Program-made: the position numbers and the translations under genes | Part shown: piece after piece, positions 1-29,878 of the stretch | How the letters are laid out: every line of letters starts with the position of its first letter | Numbering within the stretch: the stretch's first letter is position 1 | Origin: a virus | Lineage: Duplodnaviria > Caudoviricetes | Reading direction: 5' to 3' (one strand) | Virus record (IMG/VR): IMGVR_UViG_3300007255_000004 | Span: 1-33,672 of that record | DNA length: 33,672 bases | Notes under the pieces: model-generated | What the model saw: the letters and a program-made list of their open reading frames with translations, nothing else | Databases searched by the model: none | What the model was told of the DNA's origin: nothing

Positions 1-943
1 CAGCGTGTGGAACAGCGTGTGGAACAGCGTGGGGAACAGCGTGGGGAACAGCGTGGGGAACAGCGTGGGGAACAGCGTGTGGAACAGCGTGGAGAACAGT
101 GTGTGGAACAGCGTGTGGAACAGCGTGTGGAACAGCGTAGGGAACAGCGTGGAGGACAGCGTGTGGAATAGCGTGTGGAACAGCGTGGGGACCAGCGTGT
201 GGAACAGCGTGGAGAACAGCGTGGGGACCAGCGTGGTGGGCAGCGTGAGGGACAGCGTGTGTAACAGCATGTGGAACAGCGTGGGGAACAGCGTGGGGAA
301 CAGCGTGGGGAACAGCGTGGAGAACAGCGTGGTGAGCAGCGTGAGGGACAGCAGGATGGACAGCATGGGGAACAGCGTGTGGAACAGCGTAATGAACAGC
401 GTGGGGAACAGCGTAGGAAACAGCGTGAGGGACAGCGTAGTGAACAGCGTGTGGACCAGAGTAAGGGACAGCGTGTGGAACAGCGTGTGGAACAGCGTGT
501 GGACCCGCGTGGTGAACAGCGTGTGGAACAGCGTGGTGAACAGCGTGTGGACCAGAGTAGGGGACAGCGTGTGGAACAGCATGTGGAACAGCGTGTGGAC
601 CCGCGTAGTGAACAGCGTGGAGAACAGCGTGGTGAACAGCGTGGGGAACAGCGTAGGAAACAGCGTGAGGGACAGCGTGGTGAACAGCGTGTGGACCAGC
701 ATGGAGAACAACGTGGAGAACAACGTGGAGAACAACGTGGGGAACAACGTAGGAAACAGCGTGAGGAACAGCGTGGGGACCAGAGTGTGGAGCCGCGTGA
801 GGAAAAGCGTGTGGACCAGCGTGGGAAACAGCATGGTGGACAGCGTGATGACCAGCGTGTGGAACAGCGTGATGACCAGCGTGGGAAACAGCGTATGGAC
901 CAGCGTGTGGACCAGCGTGGGGAACAGCGTGAGGAGCAGCGTG
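1..943 (+). repeat. 12-bp tandem repeat array 1 (consensus AACAGCGTGNNG), about 78 units, truncated at window start
   Basis: AACAGCGTG followed by a variable triplet (TGG/GGG/GAG/AGG/GTG/ATG) with continuous 12-bp period. Confidence 0.98.
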
Positions 944-958
944 TATGAACTACGGTAA
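5..958 (+). CDS. (N-S-V-x)n tetrapeptide-repeat protein 1, 5'-partial
   Basis: Frame open across the whole array. Variants AAT/AAC and GTA/GTG are synonymous in this frame, and AAT creates TAG in the EQR frame. The stop overlaps the start of the next gene. Confidence 0.7.
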   Translation: MWNSVWNSVGNSVGNSVGNSVGNSVWNSVENSVWNSVWNSVWNSVGNSVEDSVWNSVWNSVGTSVWNSVENSVGTSVVGSVRDSVCNSMWNSVGNSVGNSVGNSVENSVVSSVRDSRMDSMGNSVWNSVMNSVGNSVGNSVRDSVVNSVWTRVRDSVWNSVWNSVWTRVVNSVWNSVVNSVWTRVGDSVWNSMWNSVWTRVVNSVENSVVNSVGNSVGNSVRDSVVNSVWTSMENNVENNVENNVGNNVGNSVRNSVGTRVWSRVRKSVWTSVGNSMVDSVMTSVWNSVMTSVGNSVWTSVWTSVGNSVRSSVYELR

Positions 959-1169
959 GCTTTATAGCTTTTTGCTATTTCTACGTCTTATTGACAAAGA
1001 CCACGGCGAACTGTCGTTGACAGATATTGGTACCTACATAGTACTTATTAAACTAGTTCTGATTAGGCAGCCTACTATGGTCGACTTGACAGCATTGCTG
1101 GCTATGCTACTATCCAGGGGATATAGGCGATATGTGACTTCACAACCCGCGTCGGAAGACGTATACTAG
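945..1169 (+). CDS. small membrane protein (two hydrophobic segments, holin-like size)
   Basis: 74 aa. Hydrophobic stretches IGTYIVLIKLVLI and LTALLAMLL followed by a basic tail (RGYRRY). Packed between array 1 and the next gene. Confidence 0.6.
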   Translation: MNYGKLYSFLLFLRLIDKDHGELSLTDIGTYIVLIKLVLIRQPTMVDLTALLAMLLSRGYRRYVTSQPASEDVY

Positions 1170-1176
1170 GAGCAAC

Positions 1177-1506
1177 ATGAAAAAGCAAGCAAGGCAGTAT
1201 AGACAAGGCGATGTCTTCATTGTAGAAGTTCTCTCTATCCCAAAGCAGGTCAAGAATATTCCTCTGGAGAATGGCAAGATTGTTTTGGCGCACGGCGAAG
1301 CGACTGGCCATACGCATGCCATCGATGCTTCCAAGCTGGCCGTGTTCGTGGTGAACGAGCAGACGCAGGAGCGGTTCCTTCAGCTGAAAGGAATGGCGAC
1401 GCTTCGTCATGAAGAGCATTCTGAGATTCAGCTGCCAGCAGGCAATTGGCAAGTGATTAGGCAGCAGGAATATACGCCGCGGGCATGGCGAACGGTGGCG
1501 GATTGA
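1177..1506 (+). CDS. small His-motif beta protein, habitual gene neighbour of DUF6745 proteins
   Basis: AGGAG RBS. Motifs RQGDV, LAHGEATGHTH, LRHEEH, LPAGNWQVIRQQEY, V-A-D C-terminus, recognised from proteins encoded beside DUF6745. Confidence 0.8.
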   Translation: MKKQARQYRQGDVFIVEVLSIPKQVKNIPLENGKIVLAHGEATGHTHAIDASKLAVFVVNEQTQERFLQLKGMATLRHEEHSEIQLPAGNWQVIRQQEYTPRAWRTVAD

Positions 1507-2072
1507 GCAGCATAAAGACCGGCGTGAATAACAGCGTGGTGAACCGCGTGAGGGCCAGCGTGTAGGAACAGCGTGTAGGAACAGCGTGTAGGAACAGCGT
1601 GTAGGAACAGCGTGTAGGAACAGCGTGTAGGAACAGCGTGGAGGACAGCGTGGAGGACAGCGTGGAGGACAGCGTGGGGACCAGCGTGGGGACCAGCGTG
1701 GGGACCAGCGTGGGGACCAGCGTGGGGACCAGCGTGGGGAACAGCGTGGGGAACAGCGTGGGGAACAGCGTGGGGAACAGCGTGGGGAACAGCGTGGGGA
1801 ACAGCGTGTGGAACAGCGTGGAGAACAGCGTGTGGAACAGCGTGAGGAACAGCGTGTGGAACAGCATGAAGAACAGCATAAGGGATAGCGTGCAGAACAG
1901 CGTGTGGAACAGCGTGGAGAACAGCGTGAGGAACCGCGTGTGGAACAGCGTGGAGAATAGCGTGGAGAACAGCGTGGAGAACAGCGTGGAGAACAGCGTG
2001 GAGAACAGCGTGGAGAACAGCATGAGTTACAACATGAGGAATAGCGTAATAAACCACTTGGAGGTCAGATGA
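1503..2072 (+). pseudogene. (N-S-V-x)n tetrapeptide-repeat ORF 2, interrupted by six 13-bp units with in-frame TAG at 1563 and 1602; distal part 1638..2072 is open
   Basis: TTG at 1503 overlaps the upstream TGA (TTGA). 1503-1562 reads LSSIKTGVNNSVVNRVRASV in the same frame as 1638..2072. The end overlaps the DUF6745 start (ATGA). Confidence 0.6.
1530..2050 (+). repeat. 12-bp tandem repeat array 2, including a 6 x 13-bp block (GTGTAGGAACAGC) at 1560-1637
   Basis: Direct reading. Homogeneous runs of GTGGAGGACAGC, GTGGGGACCAGC, GTGGGGAACAGC and GTGGAGAACAGC. Confidence 0.97.
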
Positions 2073-2938
2073 AAATTACTGAATTGACGGAAGCACAAAA
2101 GGCGCGGTTCGGCGAATTTGTTGCTAAGTGGACGGCAATTGGGTTGGAGACAGCGCCGGCCAATCGTCCTGTTGCAGAAGCAGCAATAGAGCTTTGCTAC
2201 AGGCAGGCGAATCTAACGCCTCCGAAGAAGATTACTTGGTTTGATTCCCCTGCCGCAATGGTGCAGGTACGGGCGATGCAGGCGAAGATATCTGTTTCGG
2301 AGGCGCTGCGTGAGTGTATTTTCGGTCAGCACGACGCTGGTTGGTTGTCTTTCTACGACTACTTCCGTGACGTTTGCGGCCTAAAGACTGAGACCGAGCC
2401 GCTTAGTGGTTTATTTGAACTAGCGAAGCATGCCGGCTGGGCATTGCCGTTGGAGAACGAGTGTTTGATTTCAGACCGTCCGTGTCTTCTTAAGACAGAC
2501 GCAGCGGGAAGATTACATTCTCTTCAAGGACCCGCGTTAGAGTATCGAGATGGTTATAGCCTCTTTGTCGTTCATGGAGTTCGCGTACCTTTCGAGATTG
2601 TGCAGAGACCGGACTTGATTACGGTACAGCGGATTGAGGCAGAAGAGAACGGTGAGATTCGTAGGGTGATGCTAGACCTCTTTGGCTGGAAGAAGTACTT
2701 GGAGACTTCTGGTGCGGTTGAAGTCAACCGGGACGAGTTCGGCATTCTGTACAAGAAAGACATTAAGAACGATGAGCCATTGGTTATGGTGAAAGTCCTG
2801 AACTCAACACCAGAGCCAGACGGCAGTATCAAGAACTACTTCTTGCGTGTTCCGCCTGCTACGAAGACTGCAAAAGAGGGCGTAGCTTCGACATTTCATC
2901 GGACGCTGGCGGATTACAATCCCCTTAAAGAAACATGA
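2069..2938 (+). CDS. DUF6745 domain protein lacking the internal repeat segment
   Basis: GGAGG RBS. N-terminal TAPANRPVAEAAI..Y....L.PP..I.WFDSP, central GQHDAGWLSFYDYF, GRLHS..GPALEYRDG, C-terminal V.V.NSTPEPDG..K.YFLRVPP...TAKE.VA.TF....Y.P.KET. Confidence 0.85.
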   Translation: MKITELTEAQKARFGEFVAKWTAIGLETAPANRPVAEAAIELCYRQANLTPPKKITWFDSPAAMVQVRAMQAKISVSEALRECIFGQHDAGWLSFYDYFRDVCGLKTETEPLSGLFELAKHAGWALPLENECLISDRPCLLKTDAAGRLHSLQGPALEYRDGYSLFVVHGVRVPFEIVQRPDLITVQRIEAEENGEIRRVMLDLFGWKKYLETSGAVEVNRDEFGILYKKDIKNDEPLVMVKVLNSTPEPDGSIKNYFLRVPPATKTAKEGVASTFHRTLADYNPLKET

Positions 2939-3408
2939 ACAGCGTGGGGAACAGCGTGTGGAACAGCGTGTGGAACAGCGTGATGACCAGCGTGGGGGGT
3001 AGCGTGTGGAACAGCGTGGAGACCGGCGTAAGGACCAGCGTGGTGAACAGCGTGTGGAACAGCGTGGAGAACAACGTGTGGAACAGCATGTGGGGCAGCG
3101 TGGGGAATAGCATGGCGACCCGCGTAGAAAAGAGCGTGAAGAACCGCGTGAGGGACAGCGTGTGGGCCAGCGTGTGGGACCGCGTGAGGGACCGCGTGAG
3201 GGACAGCGTGTGGACCGGCGTGTGGGCCGGTGTGGGGAATAGCGTGGAGACCGGCGTAAAGACCAGCGTGGTGAACAGCGTGTGGAACAACGTGGGGAAT
3301 AGCGTGATGGACAGCGTGGAGGGCAGCGTGAGAAACAGCGTGATGGACAGCATGGGGAACAGCGTGTGGAACAGCGCTATTTCTGCAAAGCCTCTTCCCG
3401 AGAAATAA
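2935..3408 (+). CDS. (N-S-V-x)n tetrapeptide-repeat protein 3
   Basis: ATG overlaps the DUF6745 stop (ATGA). Frame open through about 36 repeat units. 3' end overlaps the convergent ClpP gene by 32 bp. Confidence 0.7.
   Translation: MNSVGNSVWNSVWNSVMTSVGGSVWNSVETGVRTSVVNSVWNSVENNVWNSMWGSVGNSMATRVEKSVKNRVRDSVWASVWDRVRDRVRDSVWTGVWAGVGNSVETGVKTSVVNSVWNNVGNSVMDSVEGSVRNSVMDSMGNSVWNSAISAKPLPEK
2938..3376 (+). repeat. 12-bp tandem repeat array 3 (most diverged of the three)
   Basis: Same AACAGCGTGNNG period with more substitutions (GAC CGC, ACC GGC, GCC AGC). Confidence 0.97.
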
Positions 3409-3973
3409 TTCGGTCTACCGCCCCAATCTGTACGGCCTCTTCAGCGCTGAACCAGTAGTCTTTATCAGTCGTACGTTTCTTGAGCTCTTCAAATGAGATA
3501 TTCAGCCTTGCTGCAATCCCCCGTAAGTATACATCGCTCAAGTCATGCATCATTTTTGAGGCTCGCTCAATGTCACTAGGCTTGCCTTCAAGCGTTGCTG
3601 AAACTTCATGGGCTAAGTATACAGACCCTGGTGTGGCTAGACGCGTGTCGCATACTTCTAGAAGATATAGACCCGCGCTCGCGGCCATCCCATCCACTAC
3701 GCACGTAATCTTCGTGCCTCCGAGTTGAACATGTCTCATCAAAGCTGCGAAGGCAAACATGGTTCTCAACTCACCACCTGGACTATCAAAATGCAGGACT
3801 ATCTCTGGGTCACGGTGCTCTCTGGCTTCCAGAAGACGTTGGGCAGCTGGGCCCAAGGACATAAAGGAAATGTCTACAATATCCAAGCCGCGTTGTGGGG
3901 GCAACTCATCAGCGAAGCAGCTGAACGGCATGAAAGCAAGAAGGGCGGAGAGTAGAACAACAGTCGTTTTCAT
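3377..3973 (-). CDS. ClpP/S14-family serine peptidase with N-terminal signal peptide
   Basis: FDSPGG, VVDGMAASAG (catalytic Ser), LAHE (catalytic His), DYWFSAEEAVQIGAVDRI. N-terminus MKTTVVLLSALLAFMPFSCFA resembles a Sec signal. Confidence 0.85.
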   Translation of the reverse strand: MKTTVVLLSALLAFMPFSCFADELPPQRGLDIVDISFMSLGPAAQRLLEAREHRDPEIVLHFDSPGGELRTMFAFAALMRHVQLGGTKITCVVDGMAASAGLYLLEVCDTRLATPGSVYLAHEVSATLEGKPSDIERASKMMHDLSDVYLRGIAARLNISFEELKKRTTDKDYWFSAEEAVQIGAVDRIISREEALQK

Positions 3974-4566
3974 CGATGGAGTGCAGCGTCGAAAGCAGCT
4001 TGGCGTTTCAGGACATCCGAAACGTAGTCACCGCCGGTAGTTAAAGCGTCGAGTCGTTGGACTAAGGAAGTTGGGTCTCCCGGCGTGGCGCGTAGGTCTC
4101 CCGGCGTGGCGCGTAGGTCTCCCGGCGTGGCGCGTAGGTCTCCCGGCGTGGCGCGTAGGTCTCCCGGCGTGGCGCGTAGTGCTCGGGTCAGCCCGGCGTT
4201 ATAGGCCGCAATAGCCACAGCCCAGCGTCCTACCGATAGATTGTAGTAGTGGCGGAGTAGCCAGCAGCCGTATAGAATGTTGAATGCAGGAGAGCGCCAG
4301 AGTGGAACTCCGTCGAAAAAAGCAGCATCAAGAAATCTTTGATGAGTTCTATCGTCGAGTTGCATTAGACCCCGACCATGTCCATTGTCACCTGTTCCTG
4401 TTGGCCCGGGAGGAAGAAGTGCTTCTCCCCCGCGGCTTTCCCGGTCGCAGATGGCTGCTAAGAGCGTGGGCGATACTCCGTAGACTAACCCGGCAGCCAT
4501 AAAGCTATCGGCCCATTGCGCCAGCCTACTAGGCAGTATTGATTTAAGATGTGCGGAATCGGCCAT
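3970..4566 (-). CDS. endolysin, SLT/goose-type lytic transglycosylase (probable start ATG 4566)
   Basis: LLAAICDRES (catalytic Glu), GRGLMQL and AIAAYNAG motifs. Lies downstream of a holin-like gene. Confidence 0.9.
   Translation of the reverse strand: MADSAHLKSILPSRLAQWADSFMAAGLVYGVSPTLLAAICDRESRGGEALLPPGPTGTGDNGHGRGLMQLDDRTHQRFLDAAFFDGVPLWRSPAFNILYGCWLLRHYYNLSVGRWAVAIAAYNAGLTRALRATPGDLRATPGDLRATPGDLRATPGDLRATPGDPTSLVQRLDALTTGGDYVSDVLKRQAAFDAALHR
4074..4178. repeat. 5 x 21-bp perfect tandem repeat inside endolysin (LRATPGD)n
   Basis: GGTCTCCCGGCGTGGCGCGTA x5. Confidence 0.97.
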
Positions 4567-21489: not shown

Positions 21490-22455
21490 CTAGGAGTGTC
21501 TGTCGAGGGCAGCTTTGGCTCGCTCAATGCGCTCTTTTTCTGTTCTTGGAGCGTTCATCATTGATGGCGTGCTAGCTGTCATATCATTGGACAATGTACG
21601 TCTCTGCTGCTGTCCAACATCCTGCTTCTCTTCCTTCGGCTTCTGATTGCGTGCTGCCCACTTCTTTGTGGCTATACTTCTCTCGACGGCTTGCTCTAGA
21701 TAAGATTCAACTTGGTCTGCTGCTTCTTTAGGAGACATGACTTTGCCGGTTTTTTGGAAGTATGCCTCGATGGTCTGCGCTACTAATCCATGGCCGTTGT
21801 GTAAGTTGGTTAATTCGTAGGTCTCCGGATTAGCAGTAACAAACTCCGAGACTTCTTCGTTGAACTCCTGGATAGCAGCACGCTGCTCTCGTACAACCGC
21901 CTGACGTTCTGCTGCCACGGCCCGCTGTTGCTGTATTCTCTGCTGAGCCTGAAAACGTCTCAGTTCATCCTGGAGTGCCTTAACTTGCATATCGGCGGCT
22001 GGTTTACCATCATTCAAAACAGCCTGCGTCAGGTCGTCATATGACACACCGACTTGTTTAAGGGCCTCAAGCGGCTTTGACTTAATCTGCGACATAAAAG
22101 AACGGGCACGTTGAGTCACCACCGCTTCTTGACGCATGCGGTCGGCTTCAATACGCATAGCCCGCTGGCGCTGGACCAGTTCTCGTTCTTTTCGTGCTAG
22201 TTGTGCGAACCGTACTCGTTCTTGTTCCTGCTCCTGCGTTAGCTTCGGTGCTTCGGTTTTTGGTGCTTCAGTTCCACCAGCAGGTGCTGGCGTCTTGACC
22301 GCTTCAGCCACTGCCGCAGTTTTCGCCGCTGCATCAGCCGCAGTTTTCGCCGCTGCATCAGCCGCAGTTTTCGCCGCTGCATCAGCCGCCAACGAATCTT
22401 TAGTAGCAATGGGAGCAACTGCGCCTTGAGAGGGATTAAGCGTTACTTCTGTCAT
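21490..22455 (-). CDS. capsid scaffolding protein
   Basis: Between portal and capsid genes. Low-complexity N-terminus, coiled coil, C-terminal TLSNDM...ERIERAKAAL. Confidence 0.75.
   Translation of the reverse strand: MTEVTLNPSQGAVAPIATKDSLAADAAAKTAADAAAKTAADAAAKTAAVAEAVKTPAPAGGTEAPKTEAPKLTQEQEQERVRFAQLARKERELVQRQRAMRIEADRMRQEAVVTQRARSFMSQIKSKPLEALKQVGVSYDDLTQAVLNDGKPAADMQVKALQDELRRFQAQQRIQQQRAVAAERQAVVREQRAAIQEFNEEVSEFVTANPETYELTNLHNGHGLVAQTIEAYFQKTGKVMSPKEAADQVESYLEQAVERSIATKKWAARNQKPKEEKQDVGQQQRRTLSNDMTASTPSMMNAPRTEKERIERAKAALDRHS
22313..22389. repeat. 3.2 x 24-bp tandem repeat (DAAAKTAA)n in scaffold
   Basis: GCCGCAGTTTTCGCCGCTGCATCA x3 plus a partial copy. Confidence 0.95.
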
Positions 22456-22678: not shown

Positions 22679-24672
22679 CGCGTACGTAGCACTATTGTGG
22701 ACCTGCGGCCTGGCACGTTCGGTACTGCGCCTGGCACGTTCGGTACTGCGCCTGGCACGTTCGGTACTGCGCCTGGCACGTTCGGTACTGCGCCTGGTAC
22801 GTTCGGTACTAAATCGCTAGGCTTCGGTGCAACGGGTGGCGCCTGCGGCGAAGCACCGGCTCCAGGAACAGCGCCTTGGGGCGGAGGAGGCGGCATTGCT
22901 GCCTGTTTAAGGTCATCTATCTGCTGCATGAATTGCCGCAGCATGTCTAGCCGCTCTGGCTCAAGTCCCTGATTCTTACCAAAGGAGTAATATTCTAAAG
23001 CCATTTCTTGAGCGAGTTGAAGATTGTCATAGGGTTCTGGGGCGGTATACTCGCCATCGTCTACAATCTTGTCTAGGACATTTGATAGATACTCTTCTGA
23101 AGCATTGGCAAGCCCTTCGTCTTTTTCAAGGTCTGGAAAGTCCAGAAGCTTCCTCGCCTGTCGTGGATTAAGGTAGCCAGCCTGCGCATATTCTTGAACC
23201 GTTTGTAAACGGCCTTCCGGGTCGTTTGGCAGACTAGAGATTGGAAAGCACTGCATCGTGAATTCATCTTCTTCCAGGTCAATATCTGCCCATTCAATAG
23301 TTTGTAGAAAGGATTTACCCGGAACTTTTACGGCGTACTCGCCATAGTCTTTATCTTCGCTGATATCTTTAGCACAGTTTATAGACAGCTTCGCCAACTC
23401 TAGGAAGAACTTATTATACTCTTGTCCGATGACTTGGAATCGGTCTGATTCAATATTCTCGAACGTCCGAAGCGCTTTCCCAGAGTTCAGACCCATCGGC
23501 TTTTCCCCGGCGACTGATAGTTCTGAGACTGCGCCGGTGTCGTATCCGCGTTTGATTAACGTTTCGAGGTGCGTATAGATTTCTGGCTGGACGATGGGCG
23601 CGAGTAGATACTCGGGTTTTTCGTCGGAGGAGATGATTGAACCGATATCGTTATTGAGGTGTTCTTTGGAAACCTTAGAACCGTTCTTGAGCCATATCCG
23701 GAATGTGCCAGCGAGATGCATACTCCTTTGGATGACCCATAGCAGCTTATTGATTTCAACTTGGACGTTTTGTAACTGCTCAGCCAGTCCTTGAGACCAG
23801 TAACCGTAAAGCCGGGGAGACCAGCGGAATCGAGCAAAAGGAAAGTAATCGTGTCCATAATCTTCCATGGGTGTTAAATTGGCACCATCGACGGTAATAA
23901 TGTGTTTGCCATCGTTTGCATCGGGTCCTGACGGAAGATGCCACGACTCGCGAACGGTAATCATGTCTGCGACGTTTGGAAGATAGCCTTTGTCGTCTTG
24001 CTTGGCCGGGTTGATGTTTTCTAAGGCTGCTTTGTATCCAGGATAGATTGCCTCCAAAACTCTCCGGTCAACCTGCATGACCCGATGCATTTGGCGGGGT
24101 CGGCCATACCAGCCTTCGATTTCATCTACGAATAACTCGGATGGTATTACCCGTTCGTAACAAATACGACCGTGTCGCGCAAAAACATGTATAATACCGT
24201 CTCCAAAAATACAGCCATCACGGAATATTTCAGGACCATAGTCATAGGCTTTGTTCTCATAGAAGATGCCTTCGACGAACTTGTTTAGCTTCTTGGCTTT
24301 CCTCTGGACGCAGTAATCACCGCCCGAAGTCAGGAAGTATGGCTTTGGTTTGTTCTTAGCCATTTTCGACGTAACAGTGTCTGTAACCGTTTGGACGATA
24401 TTATAGGTGACACGGTCACGCATTCCTGATTGTACGCTTGCCAACTTTGAGTAGTTAATACCCGAAAGCCCAAGAAGTGCAAGATTGCCGTATAAACGCG
24501 AACTGATAACATGCTGAGTCACCCGTGCAGCTTGATGCTGTTGGAGATAAGAAAGAATGCCGGAGATAGAATCAGCAGCTTCTTTCGCTGATAGTTTCCA
24601 CCACTGAAGTTGCTTGCGAGTCGCTTCTGCTTGGGGACCAGAGCTGAAACTACGAAAGTCTATATTAGCCAC
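22675..24672 (-). CDS. portal protein
   Basis: 665 aa between terminase and scaffold. YNIVQTVTDTVTSKMAKNKPKP, YFPFARFRW...YWSQGLAEQL...Q.EINKL, GLNSGKALR, Pro-rich tail. Confidence 0.85.
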   Translation of the reverse strand: MANIDFRSFSSGPQAEATRKQLQWWKLSAKEAADSISGILSYLQQHQAARVTQHVISSRLYGNLALLGLSGINYSKLASVQSGMRDRVTYNIVQTVTDTVTSKMAKNKPKPYFLTSGGDYCVQRKAKKLNKFVEGIFYENKAYDYGPEIFRDGCIFGDGIIHVFARHGRICYERVIPSELFVDEIEGWYGRPRQMHRVMQVDRRVLEAIYPGYKAALENINPAKQDDKGYLPNVADMITVRESWHLPSGPDANDGKHIITVDGANLTPMEDYGHDYFPFARFRWSPRLYGYWSQGLAEQLQNVQVEINKLLWVIQRSMHLAGTFRIWLKNGSKVSKEHLNNDIGSIISSDEKPEYLLAPIVQPEIYTHLETLIKRGYDTGAVSELSVAGEKPMGLNSGKALRTFENIESDRFQVIGQEYNKFFLELAKLSINCAKDISEDKDYGEYAVKVPGKSFLQTIEWADIDLEEDEFTMQCFPISSLPNDPEGRLQTVQEYAQAGYLNPRQARKLLDFPDLEKDEGLANASEEYLSNVLDKIVDDGEYTAPEPYDNLQLAQEMALEYYSFGKNQGLEPERLDMLRQFMQQIDDLKQAAMPPPPPQGAVPGAGASPQAPPVAPKPSDLVPNVPGAVPNVPGAVPNVPGAVPNVPGAVPNVPGRRSTIVLRTR
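22708..22810. repeat. about 5 x 21-bp tandem repeat (VPNVPGA)n at the portal C-terminus
   Basis: GCCTGGCACGTTCGGTACTGC x4 plus a partial copy with one synonymous change. Confidence 0.95.
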
Positions 24673-24674
24673 GA

Positions 24675-24914
24675 CTACTCATTACTTGGTTCTGGAAGGT
24701 CCGGGGATGACCAGAAGAGCATTGCTTCCTCTGGCATCGGCTTTGTTTCGAAGGGATTCACAATGGTACTAGACTTCGTGACAGTATAGCCCGAAGGATT
24801 AAACGCCGTCTCAGACATTTCGATTTCGACTAAATCCATATGTCCTGGCAATTGACCCCGATATCGTTTGACTTTGTGTTTCGTCATTGTTTCTATCAAT
24901 TCAATGAGAGTCAT
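24675..24914 (-). CDS. hypothetical protein upstream of portal
   Basis: About 79 aa, ends EEAMLFWSS.., fills the gap before the portal start. Confidence 0.6.
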   Translation of the reverse strand: MTLIELIETMTKHKVKRYRGQLPGHMDLVEIEMSETAFNPSGYTVTKSSTIVNPFETKPMPEEAMLFWSSPDLPEPSNE

Positions 24915-25007
24915 GGCCAAAGATTCTTTCCCAACCGTCGAGAGTCATGGCCAAAGATTCTTTCCCAACCGTCGAGAGTCATGGCCAAAGATTCTTTCCC
25001 AACCGTC
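24906..25007. repeat. 3 x 34-bp perfect tandem repeat across a gene junction
   Basis: GAGAGTCATGGCCAAAGATTCTTTCCCAACCGTC x3. Confidence 0.97.
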
Positions 25008-25133: not shown

Positions 25134-25587
25134 TGAGAATCTCTTTTTTGGCCTGAGCCGGCGTGATTGCTTTGTTATAGAGACTGCTAGAAAGCCTACC
25201 GGCGATATGTCGAAGAGCTTGAAACCGTACTTCGCGGTCTTGCGTCAATTCACAAATCTTTTGATACTCCGCACGATGTCCAATGATTTCCTCGAAGAGG
25301 TAGAAATCAGGGCCGTTCATATATTTCTTCCACCAACCTGCAGCATCTTCTCCTTGTCTTTGGCTGTGGGCCTCTTCATGCGCTAAAAGCGGTTTTGAAA
25401 CTACGCCTCCCGACGGATTGTAGAGAGTCTTTCCGTAAGTAAACACGACCCCTTTGGCGGTCGCATTTGGGAAGACCTTAACAATGTCGTCGAAGTTAGG
25501 CGGCAAGCCTTGTACAATCTTCAGGAAGTTAGGCGGCAAGCCTTGTACAATCTTCAGGGCCCTAGGCCCGCTGTCCTTTAGACTCAT
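25120..25587 (-). CDS. HExxH putative zinc metallopeptidase
   Basis: VFTYGKTLYNP...LLAHEEAHSQRQ...W..Y....FYLFEE. ATGA overlap with terminase. Confidence 0.65.
   Translation of the reverse strand: MSLKDSGPRALKIVQGLPPNFLKIVQGLPPNFDDIVKVFPNATAKGVVFTYGKTLYNPSGGVVSKPLLAHEEAHSQRQGEDAAGWWKKYMNGPDFYLFEEIIGHRAEYQKICELTQDREVRFQALRHIAGRLSSSLYNKAITPAQAKKEILNAPQ
25492..25557. repeat. 2 x 33-bp perfect tandem duplication (LKIVQGLPPNF x2)
   Basis: GAAGTTAGGCGGCAAGCCTTGTACAATCTTCAG x2. Confidence 0.95.
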
Positions 25588-28073: not shown

Positions 28074-28240
28074 TGGTCTGCGACAGGCGGCTCTTTCTTC
28101 TGGGCCGCCTGCTGATTCAACCGCTTCATCTGGCCATATGCCTTCTGTATCTCGGCCTGGAAGACATGGATACGATAGGACGCCTCGCCGACTTGGGCGC
28201 ACAGCTGCATGTATTCCTGTTGAATAGCTTCAAGGGTCAT
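28052..28240 (-). CDS. small coiled-coil protein, first gene of the late operon
   Basis: 62 aa, IQQEYMQLCAQVGE helical pattern. Confidence 0.6.
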   Translation of the reverse strand: MTLEAIQQEYMQLCAQVGEASYRIHVFQAEIQKAYGQMKRLNQQAAQKKEPPVADQCESTSP

Positions 28241-28305
28241 AGGCGGGCTTCAAGGGTCATAGGCGGGCTTCAAGGGTCATAGGCGGGCTTCAAAGGTCAT
28301 AGGCG
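28227..28305. repeat. 4 x 20-bp tandem repeat containing the start codon of 28052..28240
   Basis: GCTTCAAGGGTCATAGGCGG x3 plus a fourth copy with one mismatch. Confidence 0.95.
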
Positions 28306-28720: not shown

Positions 28721-28782
28721 TTTAACGCGTCCTGAACCTACCATGGCCAGATTTAACGCGTCCTGAACCTACCATGGCCAGA
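28721..28782. repeat. 2 x 31-bp perfect tandem duplication
   Basis: TTTAACGCGTCCTGAACCTACCATGGCCAGA x2. Confidence 0.95.
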
Positions 28783-29796: not shown

Positions 29797-29878
29797 CTCC
29801 TCATATCGTTTCCAAGCCTCTTCTTGTTCTGGTGTCCTCCTCATATCGTTTCCAAGCCTCTTCTTGTTCTGGTGTCCT
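29797..29878. repeat. 2 x 40-bp perfect tandem duplication (frameshifting)
   Basis: CTCCTCATATCGTTTCCAAGCCTCTTCTTGTTCTGGTGTC x2. Confidence 0.95.

Follow-up and report, generated by a model that had tools for sequence, protein, structure and literature searches.

Organization of the DUF6745 locus

The linear IMG/VR record IMGVR_UViG_3300007255_000004 (33,672 nt, analysed whole and here called the window) comes from an uncultured phage, was found in one soil-metagenome run, and is about 76% complete by estimate. At its left end, on the plus strand, a gene for a protein of the DUF6745 family and one for a histidine-motif partner (the His protein) are interspersed with arrays of a tetrapeptide-coding repeat. 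The gene order, with repeat open reading frame (ORF) 1, a gene of 74 amino acids (aa), the His protein, repeat ORF2, DUF6745 and repeat ORF3, and the strand are as a first-pass annotation of this DNA had given them. The locus combines a repeat-less DUF6745 with detached repeat genes, in a family without published function.

The DUF6745 protein (2069..2938, plus strand, 289 aa) matches the PF20530 profile over residues 79-289 with 216.7 bits against a cut-off of 27 (E 2.7e-64); the profile check bears out the family assignment made earlier. Many members of the family had been said to carry internal tetrapeptide tracts, and this holds: among the best 120 of 1036 homologues, query included, 87 have at least six [SQ][VL] units, 14 have three to five and 19 have none to two. 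The internal tract that the tract-bearing form carries before the GQHD motif is absent from the window's protein. Its site, as located in most homologues, is here a linker of 24 codons (residues 62-85; 2252..2323, plus strand), lying between helices 61-72 and 76-80 of the predicted model. The segment between W.DSP and GQHD is free of xSVx units, as had been claimed, and counts 24 residues instead of the 22 given.

A short stub remains ahead of GQHD, its hydrophobic residues spaced by four positions; at -2 and -6 before this motif, 78% of 37 short linkers have hydrophobic residues. Four cellular copies with non-repetitive linkers of 168 aa keep a period-4 hydrophobic signal that 0-1 of 500 shuffles reach, so that the rhythm reflects a constraint on the protein; several other long linkers are without it. 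A different period-4 unit, ATxx, replaces xSVx or xQVx in the DUF6745 linkers of three loci (L062, L232 and L233).

The structural model of DUF6745 is confident (mean predicted local distance difference test score, pLDDT, of 95.7), and no solved fold matched it at E ≤ 0.001 in Foldseek. A VIA search, whose list tested mainly residues 193-282, gave a best Z of 3.8 and none of 5 or above. BFVD returned DUF6745-like proteins only, and a single-protein scan of viral contigs found no relative.

Three arrays, two of them open throughout

A 12-nt unit forms three arrays (1-943, 1530-2021 and 2937-3376), in which we counted 146 in-frame units of the N-S-V-x type, 62 of them distinct. Tryptophan is the commonest fourth residue (42/146). 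The unit make-up differs among the arrays, and ORF1 and ORF2 have an exact word of 79 nt in common.

ORF1 (2..958, plus strand) encodes at least 318 aa with 78 units and is cut at its 5′ end by the end of the contig. Its start is unseen because the frame begins at base 2 of a linear, incomplete record; complete capsid relatives measure 37.5-43.5 kb, hence several kb, including this start, are missing. One unitig with 255 letters absent from the window enters array 1 at position 229; these may be the start that ORF1 lacks, or else belong to a fourth array. ORF3 (2935..3408, plus strand) is intact, with 157 aa and 36 units. It is coupled to the DUF6745 stop, opens with M-x-S-V as other stand-alone genes do, and overlaps a convergent Clp-like gene by 32 nt at its 3′ end. 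ORF3 also matched the PADLOC model PDLC03396 (type II nicking endonuclease; E 1.7e-8 over 80 residues), probably through low complexity, though the model may include a similar tract.

Array 2 does not form one gene. A 5′ remnant of 20 codons (1503..1565, plus strand) starts at a TTG overlapping the stop of the His gene and ends at TAG 1563-1565. The break is due to 6.5 exact copies of a TAG-bearing 13-nt repeat, the 12-nt unit plus one base (1556..1640, plus strand), beyond which a distal part of 144 aa (1638..2072, plus strand) stays open as far as a stop that overlaps the DUF6745 start. The first two copies lie inside a 730-nt unitig (856-1585) without any differing letter, so the stop is present in the reads, from a run that may itself be the source sample. 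Recoding of TAG was ruled out, since TAG ends 11 of the 35 genes checked and is hence a true stop in this phage. Judging from the sequence, translation may restart at GTG 1638, 1650, 1662 or 1674, behind AGGA/GAGG words.

The picture of three coupled repeat genes is therefore wrong for array 2, of which only 1638-2072 is open. Of the start/stop overlaps listed with it, we find the ATGA at 2069-2072, the ATGA at 2935-2938 and the one of 14 nt (945-958); the TTGA at 1503-1506 does not couple one intact ORF2. Shine-Dalgarno-like words stand ahead of 945, 1177 and 2069, and none is evident ahead of 2935. The N-termini of ORF3 and of the ORF2 remnant resemble those of stand-alone repeat genes in other phages, which are 29-116 aa long (median 64, n = 89); what sets the window apart is its arrays, which at 144, 157 and at least 318 aa as assembled are more than double the usual length.

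Selection on the encoded repeats

Open frames are weak evidence of coding in such repeats, as the antisense frames are open as well. The codon positions are more telling. In the Val codon, one change falls on the middle base and 13 on the third among the 62 distinct units (p 0.001, an indicative value because units are not independent), and changes of its first base yield only Met or Ile. No in-frame unit has a stop at the position where 42 have TGG. The frame that selection preserves in the arrays, acting at the level of the protein, is that of the internal tracts of the DUF6745 family.

Explanations at the DNA level fare less well. The arrays share with the DUF6745 gene no word longer than 10 nt, and with its linker 7 nt, which argues against a donor cassette or recombination reservoir; we rejected the donor cassette, and the reservoir, offered by the first-pass annotation as an alternative, finds no support. 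A diversity-generating retroelement was likewise rejected: changes from G to A are frequent at unit positions 7 and 9, as are changes from C to T at position 3, and are not confined to template adenines. No match to reverse transcriptase (PF00078) occurs in the record, itself about 76% complete.

Internal tracts and stand-alone repeat genes exclude each other

We collected 390 loci by five scans with three alignments, two of which were made from short-linker proteins, so that short linkers are enriched. Scoring covered 388 loci, with both domains in 292, clustered at 90% identity. Cellular genomes, loci with less than 1 kb of flank and no repeat gene, and 17 loci with intermediate or long non-repetitive linkers were dropped, and 105 remained. 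Of 37 DUF6745 genes with a short linker, the window's included, 26 have stand-alone repeat genes beside them, as against 0 of 68 that bear a tract (Fisher p 3e-16, with kinship ignored). One locus (L144) was scored as lacking them, its apparent repeat gene being the tract of a second DUF6745 copy. Short-linker genes without neighbouring repeat ORFs, a pattern that, if common, had been named beforehand as speaking against a split system, number 11 of the 37. The window itself combines a short linker with same-strand stand-alone ORFs under coding selection, the two marks of a split locus, and similar layouts recur in other phages (L117, L049 and L069).

Whole records gave the same result. In 30 tract-bearing records, 12 of them at least 90% complete, all 85 matches fell on the DUF6745 gene (frame lengths were checked for 24). 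Five of the ten short-linker records scored as lacking repeat genes do hold matches, three of them seen as stand-alone ORFs. From the repeat side, a DNA pattern found 122 loci, 80 of which were analysed: DUF6745 genes contain 31 of the tracts and a second family contains 22, while 7 lie at edges, 5 were unread and 15 are stand-alone, on 10 records. Seven of these 10 records have DUF6745 with no tract seen (five full linkers of 41-62 aa, two cut by the locus edge), none is tract-bearing, and three are partial records without DUF6745; three of the seven look like one lineage. In the records examined, internal tract and stand-alone genes are mutually exclusive.

On the tree the stand-alone state requires 13 changes, by fission or fusion, four of them forced by supported branches. 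The unit type agrees with that of the nearest tract-bearing relative in 22 of 26 loci.

The second family is unrelated to DUF6745 and ends in GxVPSFDGxxWRLH; it carries its internal xSVx tract in 22 of the 80 pattern loci (L243:1649-2494, minus strand; L488, L507, L516, L535, L552 and L566 among them), and the one member tested matched neither Pfam nor PHROG. An NSV-specific DNA pattern found one locus only, with the tract inside this second family. A complete phage of 170 kb (G067; L609 and L610) carries two repeat-less DUF6745 copies more than 10 kb from a stand-alone repeat gene.

The conserved core pair

The His protein (1177..1506, plus strand, 109 aa, PHROG 27831) bears RQGDV, HxH and HEEH motifs. 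Over 106 sequences H47, H78, H81, D12 and D109 are invariant and H45, E41 and E80 nearly so; conserved histidines and acidic residues make a metal site likely. Its model is all beta (pLDDT 89.6), with no Foldseek match at E ≤ 0.001, a best VIA Z of 4.1 with none of 5 or above, and no match of its profile to PDB sequences. A Pfam profile search did not match it to PF31129, the family borne on the aligned part by its structure neighbours in the Atlas (TM score 0.79-0.81). NCBIfam and PADLOC gave nothing above cut-off or credible for the two core genes.

Of 164 loci with flanks of 1 kb, 161 have the His gene next to DUF6745, and the two genes are occasionally fused, in an Atlas cluster of 50 members (366 aa) and in P0123. 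A complex of the two proteins is likely. The pair is carried by the cultured phages Ma-LMM01 and MaMV-DC, by actinobacteria and by Obscuribacterales. In the cultured Microcystis phages it sits among replication genes and its linker is non-repetitive; in Ma-LMM01 (gp175 and gp174, L391:4968-6499) it lies between the genes for DNA polymerase and uracil-DNA glycosylase, a possible test system. Near three of 14 cellular loci scanned (the actinobacterial L167, L168 and L234) we found genes of an uncharacterised cluster, the STM4011/STM4012 radical SAM, STM4013, STM4014 and STM4015 families.

We found no paper on DUF6745 or PF31129 in a literature search that left most subscription journals and supplements outside its reach. 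It likewise gave nothing relevant on Ma-LMM01 gp174/gp175, nothing on the DUF6745 family under tetrapeptide, phage or bbp36, and passing mentions only of STM4011-4015.

Other features of the contig

On the minus strand, from 27053 to 3377, run genes for terminase, portal, major head, tail-like, lytic transglycosylase and Clp-like proteins; the DUF6745 module is convergent with the last of these.

The small hydrophobic gene of 74 aa (945..1169, plus strand) is a passenger, since its protein has no match in the DUF6745 loci compared and has a homologue (33% identity, E 2.6e-6; L485:1447-1725, minus strand) in a complete capsid relative that has neither DUF6745 nor repeats. It had been counted into the module as a membrane protein; it lies outside it and is only borderline hydrophobic (best 19-residue mean 1.61). 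A motif, RLID..LSLT, is common to the gene and the capsid relatives. A word-index search with the protein found only itself, and Atlas matches at 0.90-0.91 are borderline. It may be holin-like. Inside the gene, just upstream of the His gene, lie two sigma-70-like promoter matches (1086-1113 and 1139-1167, within 1086..1167, plus strand; 10/12 each). They are consensus matches only: the region 900-4100 has three, versus 1.7 ± 1.5 in shuffles.

Perfect tandem duplications occur at 4074-4179, 22313-22389, 22708-22797, 24906-25007, 25492-25558, 28227-28293, 28721-28782 and 29797-29878. The four in genes have periods of 21, 24, 21 and 33, all multiples of three, and the four between genes periods of 34, 20, 31 and 40, none of which is (p 0.03). 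Counting only periods that four does not divide, their density is about 1.8 per 10 kb, some five times the 0.38 of 114 viral loci, and two are identical in a second record, possibly from the same sample. Frame-keeping tandem repeats recall Borg elements (PMC9879509). A slippage-prone replication, we infer, would account for both the long arrays and the ORF2 break.

Comparison with known systems

In core genes and motifs the locus is like tract-bearing DUF6745 genes (PF20530; phrog_31813) with their His partner (phrog_27831; PF31129 via the Atlas look-alikes), such as gene 38 of the prophage prophiGD102-1 and Ma-LMM01 gp174/gp175. The xSVx unit is that of the nearest tract-bearing relatives, whereas the tract stands outside the protein, in separate genes. 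With 25 other non-redundant split loci the window shares the short linker, the His partner and coupled repeat genes up- and downstream. It differs from them in its DNA units, which are far more uniform, and in the one gene broken by a 13-nt unit.

Two described phage genes are similar in their repeats. Mycobacteriophage Tweety gp54 and Bordetella phage Bbp36/VR2 have, according to PMC2884959, a 12-bp unit with fixed and variable halves, a tetrapeptide repeat and a variable copy number, as here. According to PMC9262239, the unit number of Tweety gp54 tunes escape from Phrann gp29/gp30. The two systems are not homologous (hhalign probability 0.3%), and the N- and C-terminal domains of gp54 are not shared; its units are AAxx, its tract is internal between two domains, and the available text of these sources describes no split form.

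The BURP-domain peptide cyclases (PMC12874468) offer another parallel: the repetitive peptide can be part of the protein that has four conserved histidines or can stand apart from it. These are plant enzymes with CH motifs and a domain of 230 residues, whereas the His protein has 109 aa, no repeats of its own and no cysteine, and hence none of the four CH motifs.

A repeat subunit that may act in trans

From the anatomy of the locus, the exclusion, the coding selection, and the linkage and occasional fusion of the core genes, we propose, tentatively and with slightly less than even confidence, a split two-gene accessory module in which the separate genes would provide a DUF6745/His-protein complex, in trans, with a variable, probably helical repeat subunit as its contact surface. 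That the subunit acts on the pair in trans is a reasonable conjecture. The arrays would be translated, ORF3 and ORF1 fully and ORF2 only through a restart near 1638-1674, and of the steps beyond direct observation we hold this one with the highest confidence. Next in confidence, DUF6745 and the His protein would assemble into a complex with a metal site; third, the complex would need the tract, which would dock near the short stub before GQHD. With the lowest confidence, the free fourth residue and the unit number would adjust how the subunit binds a host target that itself changes, most probably a defence protein, as in Tweety gp54. Splitting would allow several variants in one phage at once, and the core gene would be spared when arrays such as ORF2 grow or break through the slippage that is frequent on this contig. 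A host-interaction or counter-defence role is a candidate, drawn solely by analogy with the non-homologous gp54. The split system proposed by the first-pass annotation is supported by the exclusion across many phages, the coding selection and the linked and fused core genes; the intact array 2 and the membership of the 74-aa gene fall away.

Several observations weigh against a subunit acting in trans. Mutual exclusion is also expected from simple gene fission with independent function, and the tract inside a second unrelated family marks it as a portable module that need not bind DUF6745. Tuning by gp54 is explained by domain spacing in cis (PMC9262239), which is impossible for a split form. 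The tract is not universal, the linker of Ma-LMM01 gp174 being non-repetitive, and in the other five of the ten short-linker records, mostly fragments, neither tract nor stand-alone genes were seen. Kinship narrows the statistics: 17 of the 26 split loci form one clade, supported branches leave only six independent pairs (3.4 the same way, 0 opposite; p 0.125, an underpowered test), and the unit type agrees in only about six of 10 lineages. The module is accessory in its phage group, with DUF6745 in one of 23 capsid relatives and in none of four complete ones. In the window itself ORF2 is broken, and no contig spans any array, so that lengths and copy numbers are as assembled.

The repeat proteins could instead be free-acting, as self-assembling helices, decoys or binders of host targets that came to stand beside DUF6745 through fission only. 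This we consider unlikely, if a serious contender: besides the tract in the second family (22 of 80 loci), stand-alone genes can sit more than 10 kb from DUF6745, and many copies per genome and the very long arrays here go beyond the need for a 1:1 subunit. Yet the repeat-less DUF6745 and its partner stay intact beside repeat genes in many lineages, extra stand-alone copies occur in 0 of 30 tract-bearing records, which free genes could join, and the four complete capsid relatives are without both parts. A reading of the repeats as substrates, with the His protein as a di-metal enzyme that cross-links or oxidises Trp/Tyr units presented by DUF6745, in a fused or split form like that of BURP proteins, seems improbable. 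The four conserved histidines with acidic residues, the fused/split architecture shared with BURP cyclases (PMC12874468), the prevalence of Trp at the fourth position (42/146) and the STM4011-STM4015 genes near 3 of 14 cellular loci speak for it. The BURP chain 8sy2_A does appear at rank 30 of the fold search, but at noise level (Z 2.7, root-mean-square deviation 3.7 over 71 residues, with a best Z overall of 4.1); the His protein lacks Cys and with it CH motifs; cellular linkers are non-repetitive; and the stand-alone genes show no conserved leader, cleavage site or linked protease, the adjacent Clp-like gene being convergent and not shared.

That the arrays are DNA-level elements without a protein role, either a recombination reservoir or decaying slippage products of a lost tract, would fit the broken ORF2, the exact runs of identical units, the 79-nt word common to ORF1 and ORF2 and the wealth of perfect tandem duplications on the contig. 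We regard it as quite improbable given the lack of homology with the DUF6745 gene, the codon-position bias with no in-frame stops in 146 units, the coupled starts and family-like N-termini of 89 stand-alone ORFs elsewhere, and G-to-A changes and a lack of reverse transcriptase in the record that are unlike a diversity-generating retroelement. That a single locus was misassembled into three arrays, or that the arrays are really much shorter than assembled, is very improbable. The assembly comes from one run only, has no array-spanning contig and begins inside array 1; unitigs nevertheless tie unique sequence to array ends (856-1585, 1992-2966, 3038-3376 and 3347-4103), the arrays differ in their units, the layout recurs in L117, L049 and L069, and a second record has two of the contig's other tandem repeats in identical form, though array lengths may still be off.

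Implications for phage repeat genes

Short variable repeats are frequent in phage genes, and hardly any have been explained; the one studied case that we found, Tweety gp54, acts in cis. In the DUF6745 family the tract occurs fused in some of the records examined and detached in others, and none of them mixes the two, which makes it possible to test directly whether repeats of this sort serve as exchangeable subunits for binding, as substrates or as spacers. The core pair is amenable to study because it occurs in cultured phages (Ma-LMM01, MaMV-DC), actinobacteria and Obscuribacterales, and neither of its predicted folds matched a solved structure. A wider reading, which we find possible but doubtful, would place the pair, with two folds that resemble no solved structure, at the centre of a widespread and so far undescribed machine by which phages interact with their hosts. 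The period-4 helix that would give it specificity, repeatedly cut loose into fast-changing genes, would then amount to a set of interchangeable variable subunits, or to substrates of a new metalloenzyme, with which phages may track changing host defences.

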